Below, one piece after another: positions 25,999 to 43,072 of a stretch of 64,000 bases of DNA. Below the pieces are notes generated by a model. It searched no databases. It had not been told where the DNA came from and saw nothing but the letters and a program-made list of their open reading frames with translations. A program made the translations under genes and the position numbers. Position 1 is the first letter of the stretch. Each line of letters opens with the position of its first letter. Source of the DNA: Candidatus Babeliales bacterium (lineage in GTDB: Bacteria; Babelota; Babeliae; Babelales; UASB340); the NCBI GenBank assembly GCA_041650475.1, contig JBAZLD010000005.1:623-64622 (forward strand), given 5' to 3'.

Positions 25999-27126
25999 AT
26001 GAAAAAAGTATTAACAATTGGTGGCGCAACACAAGATATCTTTTTGCACTATGAAGGCGCCGATTTTATGTCTATTACAAAAAAAAACAATACAGAACAA
26101 TACATGCTTTTTGAATCTGGAGAAAAAATAGAAGTTGACAATCTTTTATATTTAACAGGTGGCGGTGCAACAAATTCTGCTGTTTCTTTTAAGCGTCTAG
26201 GCTTTGATGTAACTTGTTTTTGCAAAATAGGAGCAGATAGTGCTGCAGAAAATATTTTAAAAGAGCTAGAAAAAGAAAAAATCAATACAAATTTTATAGC
26301 AAAAACAAATCAAATTATTTCAGGCTCTTCTTTTATAATAAATTCAATTCGCAAAGAACGTACTATTTTTGCCTATCGCGGCGCAAATGGATATTTGCAA
26401 GAATCAGAATTGCCGATAGATCAAATAAAAAACAGTGACCAAATATATATAACTTCTTTAAGTTATAATTCTGCCCAATTATTACCTACAATTGTCAAAA
26501 TAGCCAAACAAGCAAAAGTTCCTGTTGCAATAAACCCGGGGGTAAGCCAATTATCAAATGGCACTATAACTTTAAAAGAATCTTTAAAAGATATAGATAT
26601 TTTTATATTAAATAGCTCTGAAGCAAAAAAATTTATGCTTGCGCTAGTATTAACAGATCAAAGTTATCAAAAGGCATTAGAATCTCCCGAAAAAATATGT
26701 GCGCCTATAAATCAAAAAGAAATGATCCAAAAGCCTTATCTTCTTCAAACACCATTTTTGTGTGAAAATTTTTATTTTAGTACAAGAAAATTTTTTAAAG
26801 AAATTTTAAAAATGGGACCCAAAATTGTTGTAATTACAAATGGAGAAAATGGCGTTTATGTAGCAACAAAAGACAATATCTTTTTTCATCCTAGTATAAA
26901 AACAGAAGTTGTTGATACAGTTGGTGCCGGAGATTCTTTTGGATCATGCTTTGTTGCTAGTTTAAACCTTGGTTATTCAATAAAAGAATCTTTAAGAAAT
27001 GGAATCATAAATAGTTCTTCCGTAATTCAAAAGATAGGTGCAAAACCAGGATTATTAAAACATGAACAATTAAAAGAAAAAATTAAAAATTTTAAACAAG
27101 ATTTAACCCAGGAGATTAATTTTTGA
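25999..27126 (+). CDS. PfkB-family carbohydrate kinase (ribokinase-like) with an internal insertion
   Basis: 375 aa. The N-terminus is GGATQDIF...GGGATNSAV. The C-terminus has the PfkB signature DTVGAGDSFGSCFVASL. Confidence 0.75.
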   Translation: MKKVLTIGGATQDIFLHYEGADFMSITKKNNTEQYMLFESGEKIEVDNLLYLTGGGATNSAVSFKRLGFDVTCFCKIGADSAAENILKELEKEKINTNFIAKTNQIISGSSFIINSIRKERTIFAYRGANGYLQESELPIDQIKNSDQIYITSLSYNSAQLLPTIVKIAKQAKVPVAINPGVSQLSNGTITLKESLKDIDIFILNSSEAKKFMLALVLTDQSYQKALESPEKICAPINQKEMIQKPYLLQTPFLCENFYFSTRKFFKEILKMGPKIVVITNGENGVYVATKDNIFFHPSIKTEVVDTVGAGDSFGSCFVASLNLGYSIKESLRNGIINSSSVIQKIGAKPGLLKHEQLKEKIKNFKQDLTQEINF

Positions 27127-28091
27127 TTTATATCGAAATTCAAAATAATTTTTTATTTTTAAGCCATTTAATAAGTAAACAAAATAAGTTTGTTTTAAAA
27201 AATAATATAGAAATAAATTTAGATAAATTAGATTTTATAGACGGCATTTTATATAATCCATCTCAAATATACACGCATGTAAAAAGTTTTTTAAAACCAA
27301 ATAATCTTAAAAATCCAAAAGCAATTATATGCTTACCTAACCTAAAAAATTCACATAATTTAAAAGATTCTAATAATCTTGAACAAAAATTAAAAAGCCT
27401 ACAAATGGCATTATGCCTATCAAAAACTGGTCTCATAATAGAAACAATAATTTCAAATTCTATTTTAAAGAAAGAAGAAGCCGTTATGATACCCCCATTT
27501 TTTTATAAAAGTCACATAAAAAATCAGTTAAATTTTTTTAAACAATTTACGCCAGATGACAAAACTTCACCAAATAAATGGCTATCAAATACAATTGCAA
27601 TGTTATTAGTAATTATAATAAGTTTTTTTGTTTTGAATCTTAATAAAAAAACAAAATTAGCAAATTTAAAATCTTCAAACCAGCAAATTGAAATTAAAAA
27701 TCAAGCCTTAAAAAACAAAATTAAACAGATGCATTTAATGCAAAATCAAATAAATAATAATAAGCAAGTAATAGATAAAATCGAAAAAATTAAAAATGTA
27801 TCAAACAATCCCATACAAACTTTAAAATTTTTATCTATGTCAATCACACCAAATAGTTGGATTAAAACTTTTAACTTAGACAATAAAAATAGAAAATTAG
27901 AGATAAATGGAACAACACCAACAGAAAAAAGTATTCCTATAATTTTAAACAAATTTTCTAAACTAACTAATTTTAAAAATCTTAAAATTGCTAAAATAGA
28001 ACATGTTAAAAGTAAAAAAACAAAAAACTTTAAATCCAAAGAACAAAAATCAAAAATCTTATATCAATTTTGCCTACAGGGCGACTTATAA
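27123..28091 (+). CDS. Bitopic membrane hypothetical protein (possible PilM/PilN- or GspL-like assembly protein)
   Basis: 322 aa. The TTG start overlaps the pfkB stop (TTGA). It has one central TM helix (LSNTIAMLLVIIISFFVLNL) followed by a coiled coil. The functional call is speculative. Confidence 0.5.
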   Translation: MIYIEIQNNFLFLSHLISKQNKFVLKNNIEINLDKLDFIDGILYNPSQIYTHVKSFLKPNNLKNPKAIICLPNLKNSHNLKDSNNLEQKLKSLQMALCLSKTGLIIETIISNSILKKEEAVMIPPFFYKSHIKNQLNFFKQFTPDDKTSPNKWLSNTIAMLLVIIISFFVLNLNKKTKLANLKSSNQQIEIKNQALKNKIKQMHLMQNQINNNKQVIDKIEKIKNVSNNPIQTLKFLSMSITPNSWIKTFNLDNKNRKLEINGTTPTEKSIPIILNKFSKLTNFKNLKIAKIEHVKSKKTKNFKSKEQKSKILYQFCLQGDL

Positions 28092-30619: not shown

Positions 30620-31630
30620 CTATCTTTTTTTATTTTTTCTGCATGAAAAAAGATAACCTAAAATTTTTCTGATCGCGCTTTCTTTAATAGGCTTATGAAT
30701 TCCTGGAGCACCTCTTCTTGTTTTTTCTCTTTCAGCTTCTAATTTAGCATGATATTCACGATAAGTTTCTTCAGGCGCTTTATTTATTTTTTGAATGTTA
30801 TTGTTTATAACTTTATATAATTGACTTACTTCATTTAAAGTTATTTCCAATTTTAAAAATAAACCTCGTGCTTCTTCTAAAAAATTATTTATATCCTGAA
30901 CCTTAGACAAAGAATCTGCAGCTAAAGGAAATAAATGACTAGTTGTTCTTGATTGACTTGTTAACTTATTAAATTCATTATATAAAGAATTTATACTATC
31001 TTTTTTTAATCCTAAAAGATTGTGATTAGCATTATTATATGGTTCTAGGACAGCATTTAAACTTCTAGCAGCAAAATTTAAATTATCTTGTGTATCTTGA
31101 AAAGAGAATTTAATACCCTCTATATTTGATCTAAATTCAGTCAAAGCCACAGTTGTAATAGTTTCTAATGTTCTTAATTCTTTAGCTAAAAAAGTCTTTT
31201 TACCCTGTAATATATATATTTTTGCTATTATATCACATTGTAATTTTAATGCTTCTTCTTTTTTATCTAAAACAATTTGCCCTATTTGAGTTGAATCTAA
31301 ACCCTTTCTTGCTTGTTCTTTTGCTAATATTTCTATTTCTTTTGTTTTAAGCTCTACTTCTTGAGCCATATTTCTAGCTTGTAAAGATTCATCTTCTAAA
31401 TTTATACTTTGATAAATTCTTAAAGCCTTATTAAAACTATCCTCTGAATCTCGAAAAAAACATTCTATCTTTTCATGATTTTCTTTGGCTTGTTTTTCGT
31501 CAAAAATTGGATCTGTAGCATCAGACCCTTGTTCCATAGACTTAGCATTATCCATAGCCTTAGCACTAAAAGAAAGAGCTAATAAACATGGGACTGCAAT
31601 TGATAAAATTATTCTGTTGAACTGTTTCAT
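30620..31630 (-). CDS. Secreted coiled-coil hypothetical protein
   Basis: 336 aa. Signal peptide MKQFNRIILSIAVPCLLALSFSAKA. GGAGG lies upstream. The sequence is heptad-rich. Confidence 0.7.
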   Translation of the reverse strand: MKQFNRIILSIAVPCLLALSFSAKAMDNAKSMEQGSDATDPIFDEKQAKENHEKIECFFRDSEDSFNKALRIYQSINLEDESLQARNMAQEVELKTKEIEILAKEQARKGLDSTQIGQIVLDKKEEALKLQCDIIAKIYILQGKKTFLAKELRTLETITTVALTEFRSNIEGIKFSFQDTQDNLNFAARSLNAVLEPYNNANHNLLGLKKDSINSLYNEFNKLTSQSRTTSHLFPLAADSLSKVQDINNFLEEARGLFLKLEITLNEVSQLYKVINNNIQKINKAPEETYREYHAKLEAEREKTRRGAPGIHKPIKESAIRKILGYLFSCRKNKKR

Positions 31631-31969: not shown

Positions 31970-34900
31970 ATGAAAATTTTTTCAAAATTTAGCATTAAAA
32001 TTCTAATATATAGCATAATCTTTTTAGGTTTCACAAATTTAAATAATTTATATTCAAAATGGGGAAGCATTAGAGTTATAACCAACCATACCTCAAAGGA
32101 TCTTGATTGTAGAGTTAATTGGGGCGTTAGAGAAGCTGGCGATTTATGGAATTGGAACCCTCCAACTCTTAAGCAAGGGAATGAAATTATAAAACCTGGA
32201 CAAGAAATAACTATTTTACCAAAAAGTTCTTTAGATTTTACTAGTTTAGAAATACCTAATATAGATGTCTCAAAAGGCCGTCCAGAAGAAAATTGTATTC
32301 GTTTACAAGGCATTGGAGCTAAATCAGAAGATCTGCAATTAACTAGTGGTAAAGTTCTTGAATTAAATCCAATGCAAGGAGTTGGTATCGCATGGCTCAA
32401 AGATCCAATTGACAGTAACAAATCTGTCTGTTTTTTTGCTCAATCTGATGATCAAGTTCAAATAGTATTAGGAGACAGTATTTCTCCTTATTATGGCCTT
32501 AAAATTGTTTTGGGCAAAAATGAATCTAAAATTATTTTTCCTAAAGAAGAAATTGCTGAACAAGAAATTACTCAAAACAATGAAGCTTTAATAACGTTTG
32601 GTGATTATGTAATTTTTACAAATGAAACAACTGGCAATGTTTTATATTTTACTTCAGAAAATAAAACCCTTGATGCGCAAACCATAAAACATGCCATTGA
32701 TCCTAATAAACCCATCGATAAACTTTATCAGTGGGAAATTTTACCAAAACCTAAAATCGCTACAGAAACAGATATAGATATTAATTTTTTAAAAGACCAT
32801 AGCTCTTGTTATCTTTTTTCTAACGGTTTTTTAACACGTGGAGATCTAGGTGAAGCCAAGGTTCTTGGAATAAAATATCCTATGAGCAGATTTAGCATTG
32901 TAAAAGCAGAAAAAACTAAAGACATTTTTATTAAAGATAATGATAGAGTAAAAATTGTTTCTTATTTTGTTGATGAAGGCTATGTTGTAGATGAAAATGG
33001 AATAGCAAGAGTTAGATGGCCAATTCATAACAAAAATAATGTTTGGAAAATTTCACTTGTTAATCCTCGCAAAAAAATAAGCGCAGCCTTAAGATATCCA
33101 AGAGTTACTAGAGAGCAAAATCCTAAAGCTATGGCAACAGGTGGACTTCAAGGTCTTTATTGGTTAAGCATTCAAGATGATTTTATTTTCGTTGGATCTG
33201 GATATCAACCAGGTCAAAACATATTTTTATCAAGGAAATTACCTAAAGAACTTATTGGTAAGCTAACATTCATAGGCTTTAGCAGCAACAAATCAACCGC
33301 AAATTATACAAATATTTTAATGGGTGATCCAATTTCTACTAAAGAATCTACAAAAATTTATAAAGATACCAAAGAAAATATATCAGCTTCTGGAGGTTTT
33401 CAGTGGCTTACAAATTATCCATTAAGAAGTTCTAACAGAGGCTCTATAATTACAAAGATAAAAGCTGACAAAAATGCCGAAATTGCTTTTGCAGATCCTA
33501 GTACTCGTGATATAAAATATGTTTTAGAAATTGGTGGACAAAATAATCAAACTATATCTATAAGCAAAAAAATAGGTACAAAACTTGAAGAGCAATACAA
33601 AGTTTACACGCCAACTCCACCAATACCAAAAAAAGAAAGTTCTTTATTTCAAATAAGTGTTGACGATGGTCTATTTCTTATAAAAAGAGATAATGAACTG
33701 CTTTTTGCCTGGCAAGATCCCAAACCTTTTACAAAATATAATTTTATAGGTTTTGGTGCAAAAAAAAGTAATGTAGAATATTCTAATATAGAAATTGCAC
33801 CTTCTATTCGTTTGGAACACAAAAGAACAGCTAAAGAATATAAGCAAATTTTCAGCGGTTTTACACAAGATTACATGTTACCTTTTTTATTAATTTCTCC
33901 TTTTGAATATTGGATTCAACAATATAGCTCTAACATAAGAATTACAGATCCTATTTATAATCCAGTAGGTTGGAATGTTGTTGGAATGGAAAAAGAAGGA
34001 GCACACTATTTTATAGTTTCTATAAGCAGTTCTGGAGAACCAAGTATCAAATATGCTGAAGATCCTAAAGGAAGTATTTTGGAACAAGCTATTAAAATTG
34101 GTTGTGATACTCTGGGTGACATTGGAAGCACTTTAACACAAGCGGGCGGTAAAGCTGCTGCTGTTGGAGTTTTAACATCTACAGTAACCGATCTTACAAA
34201 AAGAATTACAAAACAAGTATTTAAACCTACAACCGGAATTTATACCGAAGAAGCTAGAACGGCAACTGCCACAGGTAAACCAAATGATGAAGTGGAAAAA
34301 GCAAAAAATGAGATCGCTGATCTTTCTAATAAGCTTGATGCTATAGAACAAGATGCTTATCTAGATCCAGGAATAAAATTTACGCAAAAAATTGAATTAA
34401 CACATAGAATCGTTAATAATATTATCTCTCCTGAAAATATTACTCAACCAATGAGAGAGCAAATTTTAAGAATTTTAGATAATTTGTTTGAAAGTAGAAC
34501 AAATCTTCCTCAAACAATTCAACCTCCAACAATTTATGGTCCATTAACAAATCTGTTTATAAGTGCTTATGATAATAGATTTTTATTAAATCCTGAAAAT
34601 CCTAATTTTACTGGCAGACGTGGAGATTTATATAGAAAAATAAATAAATTATCAGAAGAATTATTTAATGGTTTAAAAAATAAAACAATTGAAGAAGTTG
34701 AAATAAAACCTTTCCACGGTGAAGCTATTTGGTTGGGCGAGCTACCTATTCTAAATCAAGGATCCATATTCATTGATGCTGCAGGTGAAAAAGATATTTT
34801 TATAATTTTTTATGATGAAACTACTCGAATCAGAAAATTACAAGAAGCTACAGAATTAGTTCAAGTAAATATTGGCGGTTGGGATAATAAAAAAACAGCT

Positions 34901-35506
34901 ATTTGTTCTGATGGAAATGGTCAAGCAGAAGTTTCTGTTTCAGCAGAAAAAGTACCTAGTGCAATGGCAAATGGCATAACATTCAGACAATATTGGGTAA
35001 GTTATAATAAAGGAGTAGTAAAATTTGGTATTGTAGAAAATAACACAATTAAAGAACTTTTAACATGGAAAGACTATTATCCATCTGGAAAAGTAAAATA
35101 TGTTGGCATCAGTTGTTGGGATACACCTATAAGAATAAAAAATGTTGAAATTGCACCTCCAATTGAACAAATTGAAAAACAACTTGCAAGCCAAAAACAA
35201 ACGCCACAACAAGAAGAGGTTATTCAAGAACAAAAACCTGCAGTTAAAAAAATAGCAAAACCCAAAGAAGAAGAACAAACGGCTGAGCAAGCTCAACCTG
35301 CACCACAACCACAACAGATGCAACAAGCAGGTCCAATGCCTCAAGAAGCAATATCGCAAGGAGAACCGAGTGCAAAAGAATTAAAAGAGATGCAAAAGTT
35401 TGAAAAATCAAAAAAATCACAAGAATCAAAAAAAATAAAAACCACAAAAATTAGAGATAAAAAATCAGAAAAAATAATGCGTGAAATGGCAGAGATAGGA
35501 GCATAA
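31970..35506 (+). CDS. Giant secreted multidomain protein, paralog A (3 FAMeT-like repeats, MIR-like beta-trefoil insert, helical core, low-complexity tail)
   Basis: 1178 aa. AGGAG lies 8 nt upstream and the N-terminus is a hydrophobic signal. An internal triplicated module carries IGG(W/Q)xN and WxDPxP...Y(I/V)GF motifs. It is a paralog of the next gene. Confidence 0.85.
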   Translation: MKIFSKFSIKILIYSIIFLGFTNLNNLYSKWGSIRVITNHTSKDLDCRVNWGVREAGDLWNWNPPTLKQGNEIIKPGQEITILPKSSLDFTSLEIPNIDVSKGRPEENCIRLQGIGAKSEDLQLTSGKVLELNPMQGVGIAWLKDPIDSNKSVCFFAQSDDQVQIVLGDSISPYYGLKIVLGKNESKIIFPKEEIAEQEITQNNEALITFGDYVIFTNETTGNVLYFTSENKTLDAQTIKHAIDPNKPIDKLYQWEILPKPKIATETDIDINFLKDHSSCYLFSNGFLTRGDLGEAKVLGIKYPMSRFSIVKAEKTKDIFIKDNDRVKIVSYFVDEGYVVDENGIARVRWPIHNKNNVWKISLVNPRKKISAALRYPRVTREQNPKAMATGGLQGLYWLSIQDDFIFVGSGYQPGQNIFLSRKLPKELIGKLTFIGFSSNKSTANYTNILMGDPISTKESTKIYKDTKENISASGGFQWLTNYPLRSSNRGSIITKIKADKNAEIAFADPSTRDIKYVLEIGGQNNQTISISKKIGTKLEEQYKVYTPTPPIPKKESSLFQISVDDGLFLIKRDNELLFAWQDPKPFTKYNFIGFGAKKSNVEYSNIEIAPSIRLEHKRTAKEYKQIFSGFTQDYMLPFLLISPFEYWIQQYSSNIRITDPIYNPVGWNVVGMEKEGAHYFIVSISSSGEPSIKYAEDPKGSILEQAIKIGCDTLGDIGSTLTQAGGKAAAVGVLTSTVTDLTKRITKQVFKPTTGIYTEEARTATATGKPNDEVEKAKNEIADLSNKLDAIEQDAYLDPGIKFTQKIELTHRIVNNIISPENITQPMREQILRILDNLFESRTNLPQTIQPPTIYGPLTNLFISAYDNRFLLNPENPNFTGRRGDLYRKINKLSEELFNGLKNKTIEEVEIKPFHGEAIWLGELPILNQGSIFIDAAGEKDIFIIFYDETTRIRKLQEATELVQVNIGGWDNKKTAICSDGNGQAEVSVSAEKVPSAMANGITFRQYWVSYNKGVVKFGIVENNTIKELLTWKDYYPSGKVKYVGISCWDTPIRIKNVEIAPPIEQIEKQLASQKQTPQQEEVIQEQKPAVKKIAKPKEEEQTAEQAQPAPQPQQMQQAGPMPQEAISQGEPSAKELKEMQKFEKSKKSQESKKIKTTKIRDKKSEKIMREMAEIGA

Positions 35507-35511
35507 AAATC

Positions 35512-38500
35512 ATGAAAAAAATATTTTTATTTTTTTTATTTTATTTTGCTTTGCTCGGCGCAAGAGACGAGATGGGAAGATGGTGCCTACTTGAAACATT
35601 AACAAATGAGAACCCCACCTATCCTATGAAGATGGATATACGGTGGAACGAGCTAGAAGATATAACCCAATCTTATGGATGGCGCTGGGGTGATCCATGG
35701 CCAAAAATATCTGGTGGCGATTTTATTCATGTGGGCCAGACAATTACAATTAAACCTAATGAATCATTAAATCTCCAAAATACCGTAATACCTCAAGTAG
35801 GCTCCAAAGGTCATCTTAGTGAAAAACGAATTCAACTTAAAGGCATTGGTGAACAAACAACAGAAGAGGGAGGACCAGAATATTTTGAAATTTCACCAGG
35901 CAAATTATTAAAATTAGACAGCTTACGAGGCAAGGCTTTTGCCTGGTTTGTACAGCCAATTTCAAATAGAGCCATCGCTTTTTGGGGACAAACTGAAGGA
36001 AAACTTGTAATAGCAATTGGGTCCAAAATGGGACCCAATTATTTAATTAAAATAATTTTAGGCCAAAAAAAATCAAAAATTATTACAAAAGAAGAAGAAG
36101 AGGCTGAACAAGCAATAACAGATAATAACGAAGCATTAATAAAATATGGTGATAAAGTTATAATACAAAATATTAAAACAGGAAAAATTTTAAGTTTTAA
36201 TCCCAATAAAAACTTAATTGAAAGCAGTACATATTCAGCAAATTTAGAAAAATTACCTAAAAACAAAGTTTGGGAAATAAATCAGACCTATAAACCATAT
36301 AAACAAGAAAAATCAGAAGATGATTTTTTAGAAAATGGCGAAACAATCGCCCTTTTTACAAACGACAAATATCTTAGCGGCAGATTTGGTGGTGCTATAA
36401 CTTTGGAACCTAAAACTTTAGCTTGGGAAAAATGGACAATACAAAAAATAGATTCATCAGATTCTCGTATAAAAAATGGAGATGAAATAATGCTTCTTTC
36501 TGCCCACGAAGCTTCATACTTAGTTTTAAATTCAAATGGGATCGCTGAAAATAGATGGCCAATGCACAATGATAATAATATTTGGAAAATAAGACTTGTA
36601 AAAACTCCCGAACAAAAAATTTACAAATCAAAATACCCACAAATCACTAAAGAAGAAAATTCTAAAGCAATGGCAACTACTGGTTTTGATGGAGTCTATT
36701 GGATAAGCATAATTGATAATTATGTATTTGTTGGTTCTGGATACAAGCCAGGAGAAAATTTATTTTTATTCAGAATTTTACCTAAAAAATTTGCCGGTCA
36801 AATGAATTATATAGGATTTGGATGCAGAAATAAGCCGGCTTTATATTCAAACATTTTATTGTCAGAACCTATAAATAAAATAATTCCAGAAGGCGAATAT
36901 GCTTCATTACCACCTATAGCGTTAACCGATAATTTTAAAATTCTTAAAGCACCATTAAGAATCCCTACAAAAGGCTCTATCTCCTTTGATGTAAAATCGC
37001 AAGGATCTATATCTGTAGGTTTTTTTAAAACCACAAATCCAGAGGATATAGAATACAAAATAGTAATAGGCAAAGACAACAACACAAGTATTGCAATTTA
37101 TGATAAAAATGATGAAAAAACATACTTATTCAAAAATTATCCTATTGAAAATGACATTTTATCATATAATAATTTTGATAATTTTATAGTCAGTATAAAT
37201 GATGGATTAATTACTGTATTTAAAAACGATGATCTACTTTTAGCCTGGCAAGATCCGCATCCAGCACAAAGTTATAAATATGTTGGATTAAGCTCAACGG
37301 ATGACCAAGCAAAAATAAGAAAAATAAGAATTTTAGATCCTGTTGAAATAGAAGCACAAAGAACAGAAAGAGCGTATAGAGAAAAAGCTAAAGATTACCA
37401 GTCACAAGACACTGTTCAATTAAAACTTGTAGCACCATACACGTATTGGTTAAGACAATCAGGTTTTAATTTAGAAATTGAAGACCCTGTATATAAAAAT
37501 AAAACATGGAAATTATCCCCTCCATTAGAAAAAATGGGAGAACACGCTTTTAAAGTAACAATTTCAAAATCTGGAAAGCCAGACATACAATATATGCGAG
37601 AAGCAGCTGGACATCCTTTGGAAAAAATATTAAATATAGGGGCTAACGTCCTTGGAAACACTGGAACTGCATTAGCCAATATACCTAACCCAAAAGTGCA
37701 AGCGGCAGGACTTATTACAGGTGTTGTTGGAGGAACATTAGAAAGTATTACTAAAGCTATTTTTGCTCCAATCAAGGGAATTTACACAGAAGAAGCAAGA
37801 ATCGCTCAAGCAGAAAGTTATGAATCTTCAACGGTTGTTAAAAATACTCAAGAAATAAAAAAAATACTTGAAGAATTTGATAAAATTAGAGATATCCGAT
37901 CTGAAACAGAATTAGAATATGGAATTGAATGGCACCATGAAATTTTAGATAAAATTATTAATCCTGATAATGCAACGTCAGATATAAAACAAAAAATTTT
38001 AAGAAATTTAGATACTTTAAAAAGCAAAGTAAATAAAATTTTAATTATAAGAACAAATGCAGATGCAGAATTATATAATAGTTTTATAAGTTTATTAATA
38101 AAAGCATATGATAATCTTTTTTTATTTGATAAAGAACAAAAACAAGATCTATACAATCAAATAAACGAATTAACTGTTAAATTATTTGATGCATTAAAAA
38201 CTACAAAATTAGAATTTATCAAACTTCCCCCATGTCACGGAGAATATATTTGGTATCCAGACTCATTTAAAACTCCTGATAAGGGAACAGTTTTTTTTAA
38301 AGCATCAGGTGATGATAATATAATATTAGGATTTTCTGACAAAAAAACTCAAGTTCGATATTTAGGGCGATCAAAAGAAATATACCAAATTATAATTGGT
38401 GGTTGGCAAAATAAAATAACTGCAATTTGCGCAGATTCTGACGCTTGGGCCATAGTAAACCATATATCAAGCAAAAAAAACCCTACCGCCATGGCACCTT

Positions 38501-38910
38501 TTACAGATTTTAGACAATATTGGATAAGTATAAATAATGGACACATAGTTTTTGGAATTATAGAAAATAATAAAGTAGAAAAAATATTAGAGTGGCAAGA
38601 TCCATATCCGCGAACAAGATTTAGATACGTGGGCTTTAGTAATTGGAACCATCCAATCAGATTAAAAGATATAATATTAAAAGACATAGCTTTTAATGAC
38701 CCAGATTTTATAAACGTAGCTGAAGAAATAGCAAGAACATCAAAAACAGAAATATCTAAAAAACCTAGAAGCGTTAGAAGACCGGTTGAAGTTGAAGAAA
38801 AAATTGAAGAAGAAAGTGACATACGTACTAAACAGAAAGAGCCAAAAGTAAAAACACAAGTCAAAACTAAAAAAATTTTAAGAAGAGAAAAACCTAAAGA
38901 AATCGAATAA
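35512..38910 (+). CDS. Giant secreted multidomain protein, paralog B
   Basis: 1132 aa. It starts 5 nt after the paralog A stop and is collinear with A along the whole length (e.g. KAMATTGFDGVYWISIIDNYVFVGSGYKPGENLF, GIYTEEAR, IIIGGWQNKITAICAD). Confidence 0.85.
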   Translation: MKKIFLFFLFYFALLGARDEMGRWCLLETLTNENPTYPMKMDIRWNELEDITQSYGWRWGDPWPKISGGDFIHVGQTITIKPNESLNLQNTVIPQVGSKGHLSEKRIQLKGIGEQTTEEGGPEYFEISPGKLLKLDSLRGKAFAWFVQPISNRAIAFWGQTEGKLVIAIGSKMGPNYLIKIILGQKKSKIITKEEEEAEQAITDNNEALIKYGDKVIIQNIKTGKILSFNPNKNLIESSTYSANLEKLPKNKVWEINQTYKPYKQEKSEDDFLENGETIALFTNDKYLSGRFGGAITLEPKTLAWEKWTIQKIDSSDSRIKNGDEIMLLSAHEASYLVLNSNGIAENRWPMHNDNNIWKIRLVKTPEQKIYKSKYPQITKEENSKAMATTGFDGVYWISIIDNYVFVGSGYKPGENLFLFRILPKKFAGQMNYIGFGCRNKPALYSNILLSEPINKIIPEGEYASLPPIALTDNFKILKAPLRIPTKGSISFDVKSQGSISVGFFKTTNPEDIEYKIVIGKDNNTSIAIYDKNDEKTYLFKNYPIENDILSYNNFDNFIVSINDGLITVFKNDDLLLAWQDPHPAQSYKYVGLSSTDDQAKIRKIRILDPVEIEAQRTERAYREKAKDYQSQDTVQLKLVAPYTYWLRQSGFNLEIEDPVYKNKTWKLSPPLEKMGEHAFKVTISKSGKPDIQYMREAAGHPLEKILNIGANVLGNTGTALANIPNPKVQAAGLITGVVGGTLESITKAIFAPIKGIYTEEARIAQAESYESSTVVKNTQEIKKILEEFDKIRDIRSETELEYGIEWHHEILDKIINPDNATSDIKQKILRNLDTLKSKVNKILIIRTNADAELYNSFISLLIKAYDNLFLFDKEQKQDLYNQINELTVKLFDALKTTKLEFIKLPPCHGEYIWYPDSFKTPDKGTVFFKASGDDNIILGFSDKKTQVRYLGRSKEIYQIIIGGWQNKITAICADSDAWAIVNHISSKKNPTAMAPFTDFRQYWISINNGHIVFGIIENNKVEKILEWQDPYPRTRFRYVGFSNWNHPIRLKDIILKDIAFNDPDFINVAEEIARTSKTEISKKPRSVRRPVEVEEKIEEESDIRTKQKEPKVKTQVKTKKILRREKPKEIE

Positions 38911-38929: not shown

Positions 38930-40048
38930 ATGAGAAGAAAAATAATAATTTTTATGGGAGCAATAATTTATTTTGCTTTTATAAGCAATTTTTTATATAG
39001 CGAACAAACAAAAGAAGAACAAAAAATAGAAAAAGAGCCTACAAAAGTCCCTCTTAAACAAACTTATCCTATAAAACCTGCACCCCCCTTGCCTCCAAAA
39101 AGAAAACCGATTCCACCAGCTCCTTCAAAATGGCTTCCACCAGAACGGCCTAAACCTTTATCTGAAGAACAAATAAAAAAACTCAAAAATATAAGAGAAC
39201 TTAGAGAGCTTGAAAAAAAACTAAAAGGTATCCCTGAAGAAGTAAAGAAAAAACTTGAGGCCCAAAAACCTGGAAGATTTGAAAAATTAAAAGAACGATT
39301 TGAATTAGCAAAAGTCAAAGCTGGAGCTCAATTATCAGAAATATCTCAAGATGTAAAAAAAACTGTAAAATCTATTGTAGAGGATTTCAAAAAAGCTAAA
39401 GAAGAACGCTTTGGTTTAAAACGCAAACCCAAATTAGAAAAAATAGGCGAACCTACTGAAGTAAAAATTAAAAAATATTCAAAAGAAGAATTTGAAAAAG
39501 AATTTAGTCCAAAACCTAAAGCTATAAAAATTGGTGAGCCAACCGAAGTAAAAAAGGGAATAGGTTTTGAAGAATTAAGCAAAAAAAGACGCAAAGAACA
39601 AGAAGAAAAATTTTTAGAACATAAAATTTTAGAAGAATTGAAAAAAGAAGAGCAAGCTGCAAGTATACAAAAAAGAGAAACTCCGCCACCACTCCCACAA
39701 AAACCTCAACAAATAAGAGAACAAAGAGCATTGGAACATTTTTTAAGACAAGCACCTCCTGTAAGACCTGCACCGCTTCCACCTCAAGAAGAAGCAGAAG
39801 AATCTGGGTATCAACCAGAAGAACAAGCTCCATACACAAGTCCTGTAGTTCGCGAAGATTACGAACAACCTATAACTACACCTGTAACAACAATAGCCGA
39901 ACCCACTCAGGAACCTGTTCAAGCTCCAAAATTCTTGGAAAAATTACCAGAAAAGGTAGTTCCTGCACAAAAAAAACTTCCAAGCCGTTTTAGAGGGTAT
40001 CAAAGAGTAACCTCACCTGAACAATCTACAACAGTTCCAGAAGCATAA
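38930..40048 (+). CDS. Signal/anchor protein rich in Pro, Lys and Glu, with PxxP motifs
   Basis: 372 aa. GGGAG lies upstream. The N-terminal hydrophobic segment is IIIFMGAIIYFAFISNFLYS. It has PPLPPKRKP, PPPLPQKP and RPAPLPP motifs and a duplicated KIGEPTEVK unit. Confidence 0.75.
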   Translation: MRRKIIIFMGAIIYFAFISNFLYSEQTKEEQKIEKEPTKVPLKQTYPIKPAPPLPPKRKPIPPAPSKWLPPERPKPLSEEQIKKLKNIRELRELEKKLKGIPEEVKKKLEAQKPGRFEKLKERFELAKVKAGAQLSEISQDVKKTVKSIVEDFKKAKEERFGLKRKPKLEKIGEPTEVKIKKYSKEEFEKEFSPKPKAIKIGEPTEVKKGIGFEELSKKRRKEQEEKFLEHKILEELKKEEQAASIQKRETPPPLPQKPQQIREQRALEHFLRQAPPVRPAPLPPQEEAEESGYQPEEQAPYTSPVVREDYEQPITTPVTTIAEPTQEPVQAPKFLEKLPEKVVPAQKKLPSRFRGYQRVTSPEQSTTVPEA

Positions 40049-40077: not shown

Positions 40078-41190
40078 ATGAAAAATATAAAAATTTTTAG
40101 CTTTATATTATTAAGCAGCATATTTTATGCAAATTCTAATTTGCAAGCAGGGTTATTAGATAGATTTAAAGCATGGAGAGGCAAAAAAGCAGAGGAAAGT
40201 TCTACAAAAGCAAAAATCATAGCAGAAAGACTAGGGCGTAAAGCAGCAATGACTACAGATCCTAAAAAAAGTGAAAAACTCTTTAAAAAAGCACAAGGAG
40301 AATTCGAAAAGCAAAAAAAATATCAAGAAAAAGCTATAAAATTGGGTCGAGAATTTATCTCAGAAGAAATATTGCCATCGGTTCCAACTCAAGAAGAAAT
40401 TCAAAAGAAATATCAAAGAACATCTATAGCTTTGCAACAAAAGCCAAAAGTTGAAAAACATTGGTGGCAAAAATTTCATCCTATTAAAACTTTCAAAAAA
40501 TGGAATACTGAACGAAAGAAGGTAAATCAAGAAACACAAGAAAGAATGGGAGAAAGAAAAGAAGGTGTAAAAAAAGAAAAAGTTGCACAAGTAAAAGAAT
40601 TAGCAAAAACCATTTTGGGACAAGAGATAAAAGGTTCTTTTTATGCAAAAGAAAAAGATATTTTAAATAAACAAATATCTAAAAGCAGAGAAGCAATGAT
40701 TGAAGCCGCAAAAGCAAATGATGCCGAAAAATTTGAAGCCACACAAAAAGAATATTTAAAATTTTTTGATCAAGGACGAAGAATGTCTATTCGGGATAGA
40801 GCACAAAGCACAATCGAAGGTATCCAGAAGGGAGAATATAAAAAACCTATCTCTGATATAAAACAAGGTTTTAAAGAAGATATTTTAGTTACACAAGAAC
40901 AGATAAAAGAAGAAAAAGAAAAAATACAACAGCTTTGGAAAAATATTGAAAAAAAACAACCACAAGTAGGTGAGCCTGAGGGATTTAAAACAGAAATTAG
41001 TATTAAAGAACAAGAAGTCCAAAAACCTGCAGCTCAAATTCCAAGAAAAAAAACACCTGGACAACCACCGGTTGCACCTAAAAAAAGTTTAAAAGAAGAA
41101 TTAACTGAACAAAGAAGAAGTTTGAGAGTAGTTAAACCTATAGAACCAAAAGAAATTCAAGAACAGGAAGCGGCAGCACCTGCTGCATAA
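40078..41190 (+). CDS. Secreted Lys/Glu-rich protein (WW-basic motif family)
   Basis: 370 aa. Signal peptide MKNIKIFSFILLSSIFYANSNLQA. It has HWWQKF and VGEPEGF motifs shared with the 6775-8021 genes. Confidence 0.75.
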   Translation: MKNIKIFSFILLSSIFYANSNLQAGLLDRFKAWRGKKAEESSTKAKIIAERLGRKAAMTTDPKKSEKLFKKAQGEFEKQKKYQEKAIKLGREFISEEILPSVPTQEEIQKKYQRTSIALQQKPKVEKHWWQKFHPIKTFKKWNTERKKVNQETQERMGERKEGVKKEKVAQVKELAKTILGQEIKGSFYAKEKDILNKQISKSREAMIEAAKANDAEKFEATQKEYLKFFDQGRRMSIRDRAQSTIEGIQKGEYKKPISDIKQGFKEDILVTQEQIKEEKEKIQQLWKNIEKKQPQVGEPEGFKTEISIKEQEVQKPAAQIPRKKTPGQPPVAPKKSLKEELTEQRRSLRVVKPIEPKEIQEQEAAAPAA

Positions 41191-42616: not shown

Positions 42617-43072
42617 TTAATTATTAAATCTATTCTTATATCTATACTTAATACTATTTTTTTTAAGCATTAAAACATATTCTTCTTCACAATTCATAAT
42701 TTCGTGGTGTTTTTCCTGGTTTTGAATATAGTTTTTTATTTGCTCAATCTCTCTTCTTCCAACAGAAAAAATACTGTATCCATTTTGCCATCCGAAATTT
42801 TTATCAAAGCAATCACGAACGTATTTAGATGAGTTAGACTTGAGACACCTTATAATATCAGGAACATTTTCTCTAAAATCCGTTATTTGTAAAAGTATAT
42901 GTATATGATCTTGAGTACCTCCAATTTCTACTAAATGCCAATCTTTTTTTAAAGTTATTCCGTATATAAAATTATATAATTTTTTCTGAAAATCCTTTTT
43001 TATTAAATTTTCTTTATCTCTAGTTCCCCAAACAATATGAAAAAATATGTTTATATATGCATGATTAGACAT
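42617..43072 (-). CDS. Y1 (HUH) tyrosine transposase, IS200-like / REP-associated (RAYT) type
   Basis: 151 aa. It has FFHIVWGTRDK, the HUH motif DHIHILL, WQNGYSIFSVG and the C-terminal YIQNQEKHH block typical of this family. Confidence 0.85.
   Translation of the reverse strand: MSNHAYINIFFHIVWGTRDKENLIKKDFQKKLYNFIYGITLKKDWHLVEIGGTQDHIHILLQITDFRENVPDIIRCLKSNSSKYVRDCFDKNFGWQNGYSIFSVGRREIEQIKNYIQNQEKHHEIMNCEEEYVLMLKKNSIKYRYKNRFNN

Follow-up and report, generated by a model that had tools for sequence, protein, structure and literature searches.

Tandem, putatively exported FAMeT-repeat proteins in a Candidatus Babeliales bacterium and the large uncharacterised family to which they belong

What task could be served by two very large tandem paralogs, each carrying several copies of a domain that is best known from eukaryotes? 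The question is raised by a 64,000-nucleotide stretch of a Candidatus Babeliales genome (contig JBAZLD010000005.1; hereafter the window), in which the genes p1 and p2 lie on the same strand with a spacing of 5 nt (Table 1). The two proteins are collinear over their whole length, with 36% identity across 1057 aligned residues (BLASTP). The first-pass annotation of this DNA had described them as strongly diverged tandem paralogs; both reading frames, the gap and the divergence hold up, and every motif that it quoted is found in p1 and p2. The product of p2 is 100% identical to the NCBI protein WC436_02425, from a metagenome-assembled genome (MAG) of a Candidatus Babeliales bacterium. Orthologs were found for p1 (P0005 at 65% identity and P0004 at 50%) and for p2 (P0002 at 66% and P0003 at 45%). 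Identities of 45-66% inside each orthology group and 33-39% across groups make the groups clear, and the duplication is ancient. At least three lineages retain both the tandem pair and its synteny. The two genes stand side by side in the window, as K9L05_03485/03490, and as P0004/P0003 on L020-L022, and the same arrangement occurs on L001.

The gene order Lon-PfkB-PilN-S1-Ndk-pair-secreted ORFs is kept in related genomes, and the locus adjoins housekeeping genes instead of lying in an island. Two Lys/Glu/Pro-rich ORFs downstream of p2 take the same position in related genomes and are probably co-transcribed with the pair. An NCBIfam search returned nothing for p1, p2 or these neighbours, and a scan for promoters and terminators (52 sites against 41 ± 6 expected) was uninformative in AT-rich DNA.

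Table 1. Features of the p1/p2 locus, in window coordinates.
Feature	Coordinates	Strand	Basis
p1, paralog A, 1178 aa, putatively exported	31970..35506	+	ORF call, Pfam, BLASTP
p1 signal-like N-terminal segment (MKIFSKFSIKILIYSIIFLGF...), no lipobox Cys	31970..32056	+	Kyte-Doolittle 19-mer 1.78; putative Sec export
p1 N-terminal beta-rich domain, subfamily-specific at HMM level	32054..32350	+	sub-HMM E 1.2e-40
p1 FAMeT module 1, first half	32351..32548	+	Pfam with insert excised, sub-HMM, hhalign
p1 inserted beta-trefoil-like domain, ~182 aa	32549..33094	+	alignment, PDB profile search, Pfam
p1 FAMeT module 1, second half, without W-x-D-P-x-P signature	33095..33328	+	Pfam, sub-HMM, hhalign
p1 FAMeT module 2	33389..33805	+	PF12248 E 5.8e-11, 42.7 bits
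p1 middle region A: small beta subdomain and two Gly-rich amphipathic helices	33809..34279	+	sub-HMM, alignment
p1 middle region B: five-helix bundle	34283..34690	+	sub-HMM; homology to p2 models
p1 FAMeT module 3	34691..35155	+	PF12248 E 2.6e-14, 53.6 bits
p1 Lys/Glu/Pro/Gln low-complexity tail	35156..35506	+	sequence
p2, paralog B, 1132 aa, putatively exported	35512..38910	+	ORF call, orthology
p2 signal-like N-terminus (MKKIFLFFLFYFALLGA), putative	35512..35565	+	sequence
p2 N-terminal beta-rich domain	35569..35901	+	sub-HMMs
p2 FAMeT module 1, first half	35902..36096	+	Pfam, hhalign
p2 inserted beta-trefoil-like domain, ~179 aa, residues 196-374	36097..36633	+	alignment, PDB profile search, Pfam, model
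p2 FAMeT module 1, second half	36634..36867	+	Pfam, hhalign
p2 FAMeT module 2	36919..37341	+	PF12248 E 1.6e-14, 54.3 bits
p2 middle region A: beta subdomain ~634-695, Gly-rich helices 702-722 and 727-750	37345..37821	+	models, alignment
p2 middle region B: five-helix bundle, pLDDT ~90	37822..38211	+	one confident model together with module 3
p2 FAMeT module 3, galectin/ConA-like sandwich in model	38212..38691	+	Pfam, structure model, Foldseek
p2 Lys/Glu-rich tail	38692..38910	+	sequence
Two Lys/Glu/Pro-rich ORFs with signal peptides, 372 and 370 aa	38930..41190	+	

Each protein contains three modules of the FAMeT-like family PF12248 (Methyltransf_FA), as had been proposed. The whole proteins match this profile with E 2.6e-29 and 102.2 bits over three stretches (p1) and E 1.6e-32 and 112.6 bits (p2), both above the Pfam gathering threshold of 24.2 bits. 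Module 1 is split by an inserted domain; with the insert excised, profile positions 21-136 are matched contiguously, at 24.1 bits (E 3.2e-5) in p1 and 18.2 bits in p2 against the cutoff of 24.2. Module 1 has no W-x-D-P-x-P motif, and modules 2 and 3 keep it. Profile-profile comparisons by hhalign confirm the triplication: module 1 without its insert aligns to module 2 (96.5%, E 7.5e-10) and to module 3 (95.4%, E 1.9e-8), and module 2 aligns to module 3 (98.9%, E 3.9e-17). The insertion itself is evident from the 918-aa relatives P0006 and P0007, which have no insert and an uninterrupted module 1.

A FAMeT domain in bacteria is less exceptional than the first-pass annotation supposed when it called the family essentially eukaryotic. 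Above-threshold PF12248 domains occur in MAGs that carry the labels Gammaproteobacteria, Deltaproteobacteria, Bacteroidota (among them a Prolixibacteraceae MAG), Desulfocapsaceae and Spirochaetota, which changes the picture of the domain; the scan of genomes with the FAMeT3 alignment gave 19 loci, so that this phyletic picture is a sample. In bacterial proteins that do not belong to the p1/p2 family, PF12248 occurs fused to galactose-oxidase Kelch/E-set, CBM96, discoidin and DM9 domains, and this repeated association with carbohydrate recognition speaks for a role in binding, not in methyl transfer. Among eukaryotes, the domain is shared with arthropod FAMeT (PF12248 alone, in tandem, or as PF12248-DM9/DUF3421) and with the plant BTB/POZ protein At2g30600, and the plant protein P0008 has the W-x-D-P-x-P signature of modules 2 and 3. 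Tandem copies are known in crustaceans and flies (PMC10015273). In contrast to these proteins, p1 and p2 are bacterial and putatively exported, have three copies of which one is interrupted, carry a beta/helical region of ~290 aa between copies 2 and 3, and have no DM9 or BTB partner.

The structural models agree with a lectin-type fold. Foldseek matches them to tandem galectins, VIP36, YesU, CBM66 and LG/LNS domains. The best single-domain matches of the FAMeT modules are galectin-8/-9, VIP36 and YesU/DUF1961 (target-normalised TM-score 0.35-0.67, probability 1.0), a likeness at the level of the fold only, with no sequence similarity found. Searches of PDB chains likewise gave no sequence match for p1 (phmmer) or for the FAMeT3 profile. 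Tandem-repeat galectins and L-type lectins are also multivalent arrays of beta sandwiches, as p1 and p2 would be.

The insert in module 1 is probably a beta-trefoil. It is all-beta in the AF2 model (pLDDT 34-83, ~9 strands called where a trefoil has twelve), and beta-trefoil families are its sole sequence matches, every one below threshold. A profile of the insert finds the N-terminal trefoils of IP3R1 in the PDB (E 8e-4, domain E 0.008, residues 102-255) in an alignment out of register with the domain borders, and finds no SDF2 or POMT there. In Pfam, single orthologs match Ins145_P3_rec (6e-3), MIR (0.02), Beta-tre_PLH30 (0.015) and Toxin_R_bind_C (4e-4). The earlier description of a MIR-like trefoil is partly supported: neither insert of the pair matches MIR (PF02815; gathering threshold 25.6 bits), and the best score of any insert is 15.2 bits (E 0.02), in the ortholog P0003. 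Compared with the canonical MIR profile of paralogous family members, the insert aligns at 79% over only 24 columns, those of the IxYGDxI motif, and the insert HMM does not pick up the relatives' MIR regions (best E 0.0025 and 0.07). The IxYGDxI...W.I repeat motif of the insert looks like MIR repeats; unlike the MIR and IP3R/RyR trefoils, the insert sits inside another domain. Of the three-fold symmetry that had been claimed, an hxxGDxhxh...W.I pattern is visible in the alignment, but hhalign between the repeat units is weak (P 0.006, P 0.037 and nothing for the third pair). Ryanodine receptor chains head the Foldseek results for the full model (E 2e-7), at a TM-score of 0.08; the match may mean only that both combine trefoil, sandwich and helices.

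The conserved ~290-aa middle region, absent from the first-pass annotation, is the most distinctive part of a wider family. On sequence grounds, p1 and p2 form one subfamily of this large, uncharacterised family, whose core has the order FAMeT-FAMeT-[beta subdomain, Gly/Ala-rich hydrophobic segment, five-helix bundle]-FAMeT. The architecture is no rarity, as the core is common to ~95 of the best 150 representatives at 50% identity; searches with sub-HMMs made from the pair and its orthologs find this domain order again in 94 proteins, and a 20-sequence family alignment of the middle region and FAMeT3 is collinear. A homolog search with the latter alignment returned two proteins and was uninformative, as Ala/Gln-rich words probably swamped the candidates. 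Tandem paralog pairs recur in the family. Its N-terminal head domains vary: six relatives that share the core begin with Tectonin domains (E 7e-12 to 9e-20), P0036 has a canonical MIR domain (1.2e-16) in a region shared by at least 28 members, also N-terminal, and further variants have extra FAMeT copies. The Tectonin domain (PF19193), known from the tectonin lectins of Physarum, Limulus and Laccaria and absent from p1 and p2 themselves, supports a lectin theme through its place in these relatives. No family member has been characterised, and the literature searched holds no description of the family. Few relatives carry names, and those that do are Dependentiae/TM6; some taxon labels are probably unreliable, such as 'Pseudomonadota' for L001 despite its tandem pair of this subfamily, and 'Epsilonproteobacteria' for P0021.

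Considering these data together, we find it quite possible, if short of probable, that p1 and p2 recognise the host as multivalent, lectin-like proteins exported through Sec. Hydrophobic N-termini in p1, p2, their orthologs and many distant relatives point to Sec export; like the low-complexity tails, they had been noted previously and are present in both proteins. In this proposal, p1 and p2 would be non-enzymatic recognition proteins, secreted or surface-exposed, of an obligate protist parasite. Each would hold a string of lectin-type units, namely three FAMeT sandwiches of the galectin/ConA fold and a trefoil grafted into a loop of the first, placed around a middle region in which a small beta subdomain and two Gly-rich helices precede a five-helix bundle. 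Their most likely job would be to bind glycoconjugates of the host or the host vacuole during uptake or intracellular life, with the paralogs retained as a pair whose expression is probably shared with the Pro/Lys/Glu-rich secreted proteins downstream. ConA-like sandwiches and trefoils serve in protein-protein contacts as well, and a pure lectin model leaves the conserved, family-defining middle region unexplained. Dependentiae live as obligate intracellular parasites and enter their hosts by phagocytosis; of the CDS of one cultured member, 44% encode signal peptides (PMC6561590).

The middle region is the basis of a different and, in our view, unlikely explanation, in which the proteins combine binding with membrane insertion in the manner of a toxin, translocator or fusogen. 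p1 and p2 would then be a two-component pair, with lectin-type heads that target a host membrane; it is similarly doubtful that a central Gly/Ala-rich segment inserts there, for example into the phagosome. An uncharged, Gly/Ala-rich hydrophobic 19-mer (e.g. VIAGIGIAAGSALIAGGLV and IGGVIASIAAGVFGVAGVI) recurs in nearly every family member at a corresponding place in the middle region, between Ala/Gln/Lys-rich helices whose length varies. Its median Kyte-Doolittle value is 1.57, with 36 of 98 segments at 1.6 or above and 65 of 98 free of charge. In p1 and p2 the homologous position is kept but is much more polar (p2 maximum 1.28 with two charged residues, p1 lower), and the segment could be a glycine-zipper helix buried in the protein, or could serve as a stop-transfer sequence that anchors the protein in the bacterial membrane. 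In NTNH/BoNT-like chains a lectin-like jelly roll comes after a helical translocation domain, and such chains are the best PDB matches of the model of middle region plus FAMeT3 (Foldseek E 1.7e-5 over ~460-510 columns), at a TM-score of ~0.2 and an rmsd > 30 Å that leave only the helix-sandwich order in common. Model pLDDT is 40-60 in the relevant part, and for p2 as a whole it is low at residues 1-132 and 612-768. The clostridial HN-HCN(-HCC) arrangement also places a trefoil in the same protein, the recurrence of tandem pairs fits a two-component system, and the insert of one ortholog gives the weak match to Toxin_R_bind_C, the neurotoxin trefoil family. Yet p1 and p2 have no Toxin_trans or Toxin_R_bind_N match in Pfam and no sequence similarity to the neurotoxins; they lack a protease domain, and their domains come in a different order. 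We treat the resemblance as a lead suggested by the models, not as homology.

Extended to the whole phylum, the same idea would make FAMeT-FAMeT-mid-FAMeT proteins a hitherto undescribed class of host-attack machines of Dependentiae, with interchangeable lectin heads, a segment that inserts into the phagosome membrane and tandem two-component pairs. Eukaryote-type heads (Tectonin, MIR, FAMeT and the inserted trefoil) would deliver the conserved helical module, and the fusion-peptide-like Gly/Ala-rich segment would enter the protist phagosome membrane. We consider this improbable. Dependentiae/TM6 are widespread obligate protist parasites for which we know of nothing on host recognition, entry or remodelling, and the locus opens the way to a large, conserved, putatively exported family that joins sugar-recognition modules best known from eukaryotes with a middle region of its own. 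If its members prove host-binding or membrane-active, they would be the first candidate adhesin/invasin family for Dependentiae.

We give little credence, too, to a structural role, in which sandwiches and trefoil self-assemble into an envelope or surface coat that has no specific host ligand, and the tails form a matrix with the neighbouring proteins. The large size, probable export and modular repetition would suit such a coat, as would the conserved place beside housekeeping genes and the basic/acidic low-complexity tails shared with the downstream ORFs. Against it, distant relatives have no such tails, and lectin-type heads (Tectonin, MIR, extra FAMeT) are swapped extensively across the family; such swapping is typical of ligand recognition under diversifying pressure and so speaks against coat proteins. 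An enzymatic role is very improbable, whether that of a farnesoic-acid-type methyltransferase, which the Pfam name implies, or that of a ConA-fold glycoside hydrolase or lyase, at which the PL7 alginate lyases and the GH16 and GH43 C-terminal domains in the Foldseek list might hint: we rejected the former on finding no SAM-binding fold or motif and an all-beta sandwich in the models, the activity being unproven even for arthropod FAMeT (PMC10015273), and for the latter Pfam and NCBIfam give no hydrolase or lyase family and the enzyme matches score as weakly as non-catalytic lectins and CBMs.

Between the signal-like segment and module 1 lies a further beta-rich domain, which has no Pfam match in p1 and a low pLDDT in the p2 model. 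Its comparison with the distant family members gives an hhalign P of 0.013 only. A lead-in of the form ...LNP(L/M)xxxGxAW, seen by eye, may be common to this domain and the distant relatives.

The first-pass annotation placed two long ORFs, p1 and p2, in tandem on the plus strand, and we found both exactly there, 5 nt apart, in an AT-rich window (GC about 23–34%). BLASTP aligned the two proteins over 1057 residues at 36% identity, in agreement with their description as collinear but strongly diverged, and all of the motifs quoted for them occur in their sequences. As also described, both have signal-like N-termini (basic, then hydrophobic, lacking a lipobox cysteine) and C-terminal tails rich in Lys/Glu/Pro/Gln. 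p2 is 100% identical to the NCBI entry [quoted passage not shown] which places the source organism within the Dependentiae/TM6 lineage. Known members of this lineage are obligate intracellular protist parasites (PMC6561590).

Positions of p1, p2, and neighboring features in the window
Feature	Position (nt)	Strand	Description
PilN-like ORF	27123-28091	+	322 aa
Coiled-coil ORF between Ndk and p1	30620-31630	-	336 aa, signal peptide
p1	31970..35506	+	1178 aa, long ORF
p1 module 1, second half	33095-33328	+	signature lost
p2	35512..38910	+	1132 aa, long ORF
p2 module 1, second half	36634-36867	+	signature lost
Downstream Lys/Glu/Pro-rich ORF 1	38930-40048	+	372 aa, signal peptide, 19 nt after preceding stop
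Downstream Lys/Glu/Pro-rich ORF 2	40078-41190	+	370 aa, signal peptide, 29 nt after preceding stop
IS200/IS605-family transposase	42617-43072	-	NF033573, E 3e-20

Each protein had been proposed to contain three modules resembling the farnesoic-acid O-methyltransferase-like (FAMeT) domain, and Pfam searches bear this out. PF12248 matched whole p1 (E 2.6e-29, in three stretches) and whole p2 (E 1.6e-32), as well as module 2 alone (E 5.8e-11 in p1, 1.6e-14 in p2) and module 3 of p1 alone (E 2.6e-14). The two halves of module 1, joined after removal of an insert of ~180 aa, gave an unbroken match to profile positions 21-136, scoring 24.1 bits in p1 (E 3.2e-5) and 18.2 bits in p2 against a gathering score of 24.2. 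Profile–profile comparisons built on alignments of six orthologs settle the triplication: module 1 without its insert matched module 2 (96.5%, E 7.5e-10) and module 3 (95.4%, E 1.9e-8), and modules 2 and 3 matched each other (98.9%, E 3.9e-17). In P0006 and P0007, two relatives of 918 aa, the regions follow one another as in p1 and p2 but module 1 is uninterrupted, so the ~180-aa segment is a true domain insertion in a loop of the sandwich, as the split of module 1 had been read.

Modules 2 and 3 keep the W-x-D-P-x-P signature, which is replaced by LP-K-x-F in the second half of module 1 (residues 376-453 of p1 and 375-452 of p2) and is likewise missing from module 1 of distant relatives such as P0006. 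This loss suggests that the first sandwich functions differently, perhaps serving as a scaffold into which other domains are inserted or onto which they are appended. AlphaFold modeled the FAMeT modules as beta-sandwiches, with tandem-repeat galectins, VIP36, YesU, CBM66, and laminin-G/LNS domains as nearest structural neighbors; a sequence-level search detected no solved structure of a FAMeT domain.

The domain had been taken for an essentially eukaryotic one, a view that our genome scan overturns: PF12248 occurs in MAGs labeled Gammaproteobacteria, Deltaproteobacteria, Bacteroidota (one of them a Prolixibacteraceae MAG assembled into a single 4.9-Mb chromosome), Desulfocapsaceae, and Spirochaetota. 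Six such proteins scored 72-324 bits, and three of the six are fused to galactose-oxidase Kelch/E-set domains, to CBM96, or to F5/8-type-C discoidin and DM9 repeats. The highest score belongs to P0037 (L009 4311-7775, a MAG labeled Gammaproteobacteria, NORP74), in which four consecutive PF12248 modules precede Kelch repeats and a galactose-oxidase-like E-set domain. One protein from a MAG labeled Bacteroidota (L012 3543-5723) combines F5/8-type-C discoidin, DM9 (E 2e-31), and PF12248 (E 6e-20), so the FAMeT–DM9 pairing described for arthropods exists in a bacterium too. Fusions of this kind suggest that the domain has a part in recognizing carbohydrates or surfaces. In the literature we searched, no paper mentions bacterial PF12248 or Dependentiae lectins.

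We regard p1 and p2 as modular, lectin-like, putatively exported proteins set apart by the unusual insertion of one domain into another and by a middle region specific to their family. Their composition and the insertion were observed directly, as were their family membership and conserved synteny. Our favored, still tentative, reading is that they would be Sec-exported, multivalent recognition proteins that bind glycoconjugates of the host or its vacuole. That they are exported, bind glycans, and target the host we infer from features of their sequences, the class of fold, the domain associations of relatives, and the lifestyle of the organism.

The domain calls of the first-pass annotation were largely right; support for the MIR label of the insert is only partial. 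We take the insert to be probably a beta-trefoil, with its closest detectable kin of the IP3R/RyR/MIR kind, but membership in the MIR family itself cannot be demonstrated. Among solved proteins, IP3 receptor type 1 alone was matched by the insert profile, and there the match fell in the N-terminal trefoil region (E 8e-4; domain E 0.008). Pfam matches were all below threshold and each confined to one ortholog; four of the ten families weakly matched are beta-trefoils (Toxin_R_bind_C 4e-4, Ins145_P3_rec 6e-3, Beta-tre_PLH30 0.015, and MIR 0.02). The claimed three-fold symmetry is visible as three hxxGDxhxh ... W-x-I units in the alignment of six orthologous inserts, but the internal repeat is weakly supported in statistical terms (P 0.006, 0.037, and a third value that is not significant). 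Against the canonical MIR domains of other family members, likeness is limited to a 24-column IxYGDxI motif (hhalign 79%), and the insert HMM did not detect the MIR regions of relatives, reaching E 0.0025-0.07 at best. The full-length p2 model had ryanodine receptors as its top Foldseek matches (E 2e-7, with very low TM-scores). Ryanodine receptors combine MIR-type trefoils, SPRY sandwiches, and helical repeats, and this modeled match may reflect just a common mix of domain types.

An exhaustive profile search over 1.84 billion representatives returned 462 proteins with E <= 1e-3, of which 126 had E <= 1e-30. Region-wise sub-HMMs mapped on the 150 best of the 462 matches revealed a collinear core in about 95 of them (FAMeT, FAMeT, a middle region of ~290-1000 aa, and a C-terminal FAMeT); the supposed rarity in bacteria is wrong for this core architecture, as it is for the domain. 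Most core-bearing proteins have 1200-2300 aa because long, variable N-terminal extensions precede the core. These extensions carry Tectonin domains in six members (P0012, P0018, P0021, P0024, P0032, and P0059; E 7e-12 to 9e-20) and a canonical MIR domain in P0036 (E 1.2e-16), whose MIR-bearing region recurs in at least 28 fetched family members. The trefoil insert and the p1/p2-type N-terminal domain occur only in a close subfamily (p1, p2, P0002–P0005, P0009, P0010, and locus L001). Members with names belong to Dependentiae, TM6, or Babeliales, and many are unnamed; a few bear other taxonomic labels, which are probably unreliable. L001, for instance, is titled “uncultured Pseudomonadota” yet carries a tandem pair of the p1/p2 subfamily. 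At L001 and two further loci, L002 and L005, a second family ORF ends just upstream of the matched one, so tandem arrays recur beyond this subfamily. The family is uncharacterized, and nothing in the searchable literature describes it.

In an alignment of 20 family sequences, the middle region consists of four successive elements. It opens with a small, conserved beta subdomain (ISP-F/Y-x-Y ... DG-x-P ... PENP), continues with Ala/Gln/Lys-rich helices of variable length and then a hydrophobic Gly/Ala-rich segment, and closes with a conserved five-helix bundle that runs into FAMeT 3. With pLDDT about 90 (pTM 0.63), the bundle was modeled together with FAMeT 3 as a single confident unit; pLDDT was 40-60 for the beta subdomain and Gly-rich helices. 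Against the PDB, the model of the middle region with FAMeT 3 best matched NTNH and botulinum-neurotoxin-like chains (about 460-510 columns, E 1.7e-5), at a TM-score of only about 0.2 and an rmsd > 30 A. All they have in common is the order of a helical region followed by a lectin-like jelly roll, and we treat this modeled likeness as a lead, nothing more. In P0005, a p1 ortholog, an insertion of ~85 aa rich in Pro/Ala/Gln (about residues 830-915) lies within the bundle region; this low-complexity stretch is absent in p1 and the other p1 ortholog, P0004.

The Gly/Ala-rich segment raises the alternative of a binder that also inserts into membranes, like a toxin or fusogen. At the family level this is attractive: when the 19-mer of highest hydrophobicity was located in the middle region of 98 members, its relative position proved constant (about 0.43); this 19-mer is about half Gly+Ala, is uncharged in 65, and has a median Kyte–Doolittle value of 1.57 (>= 1.6 in 36 of the 98). 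p1 and p2 themselves fit it less well, as their homologous helices are more polar and modestly amphipathic (p2 maximum 1.28), and we consider such a role unlikely for them. It is similarly doubtful that the family as a whole represents a new kind of host-membrane-active machine. Structural surface-coat proteins would be another, rather improbable, identity for p1 and p2, and that they are enzymes seems very unlikely.

Exported lectin-like proteins remain our preferred reading of a pair whose genomic setting is conserved. On the upstream side are genes for Lon, a PfkB kinase, a PilN-like protein, ribosomal protein S1, and Ndk. The PilN-like product is 43% identical to that of a PF05137 (PilN)-bearing gene in L020, a contig carrying the p2 ortholog P0003, so a type IV pilus-type assembly gene lies between the PfkB kinase and S1. 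On three P0003-bearing contigs (L020–L022) the genes keep this order (Lon-PfkB-PilN-S1-Ndk-P0004-P0003), and four secreted ORFs without any Pfam match come next. The coiled-coil ORF before p1 is not at that position in these contigs, and its sole match, TssK, was far below threshold (E 5.8e-4, 19 bits versus a cutoff of 100). Identities separate p1, P0005 (65%), and P0004 (50%) from p2, P0002 (66%), and P0003 (45%), with 33-39% between the two groups; the duplication is therefore older than the split of these lineages, and both copies were retained adjacent.

The two downstream ORFs contain polyproline tracts (PAPPLPPKRKPIPPAP, PPPLPQKP, and RPAPLPPQ). Weak homologs of both (E 8e-15 and 2e-17), which are two of the four secreted ORFs, occupy the equivalent position behind the tandem pair of L020. 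The products of the two window ORFs could be co-transcribed partners or effectors directed at the host cytoskeleton. The transposase gene lies about 1.4 kb downstream of this secreted-protein cluster.
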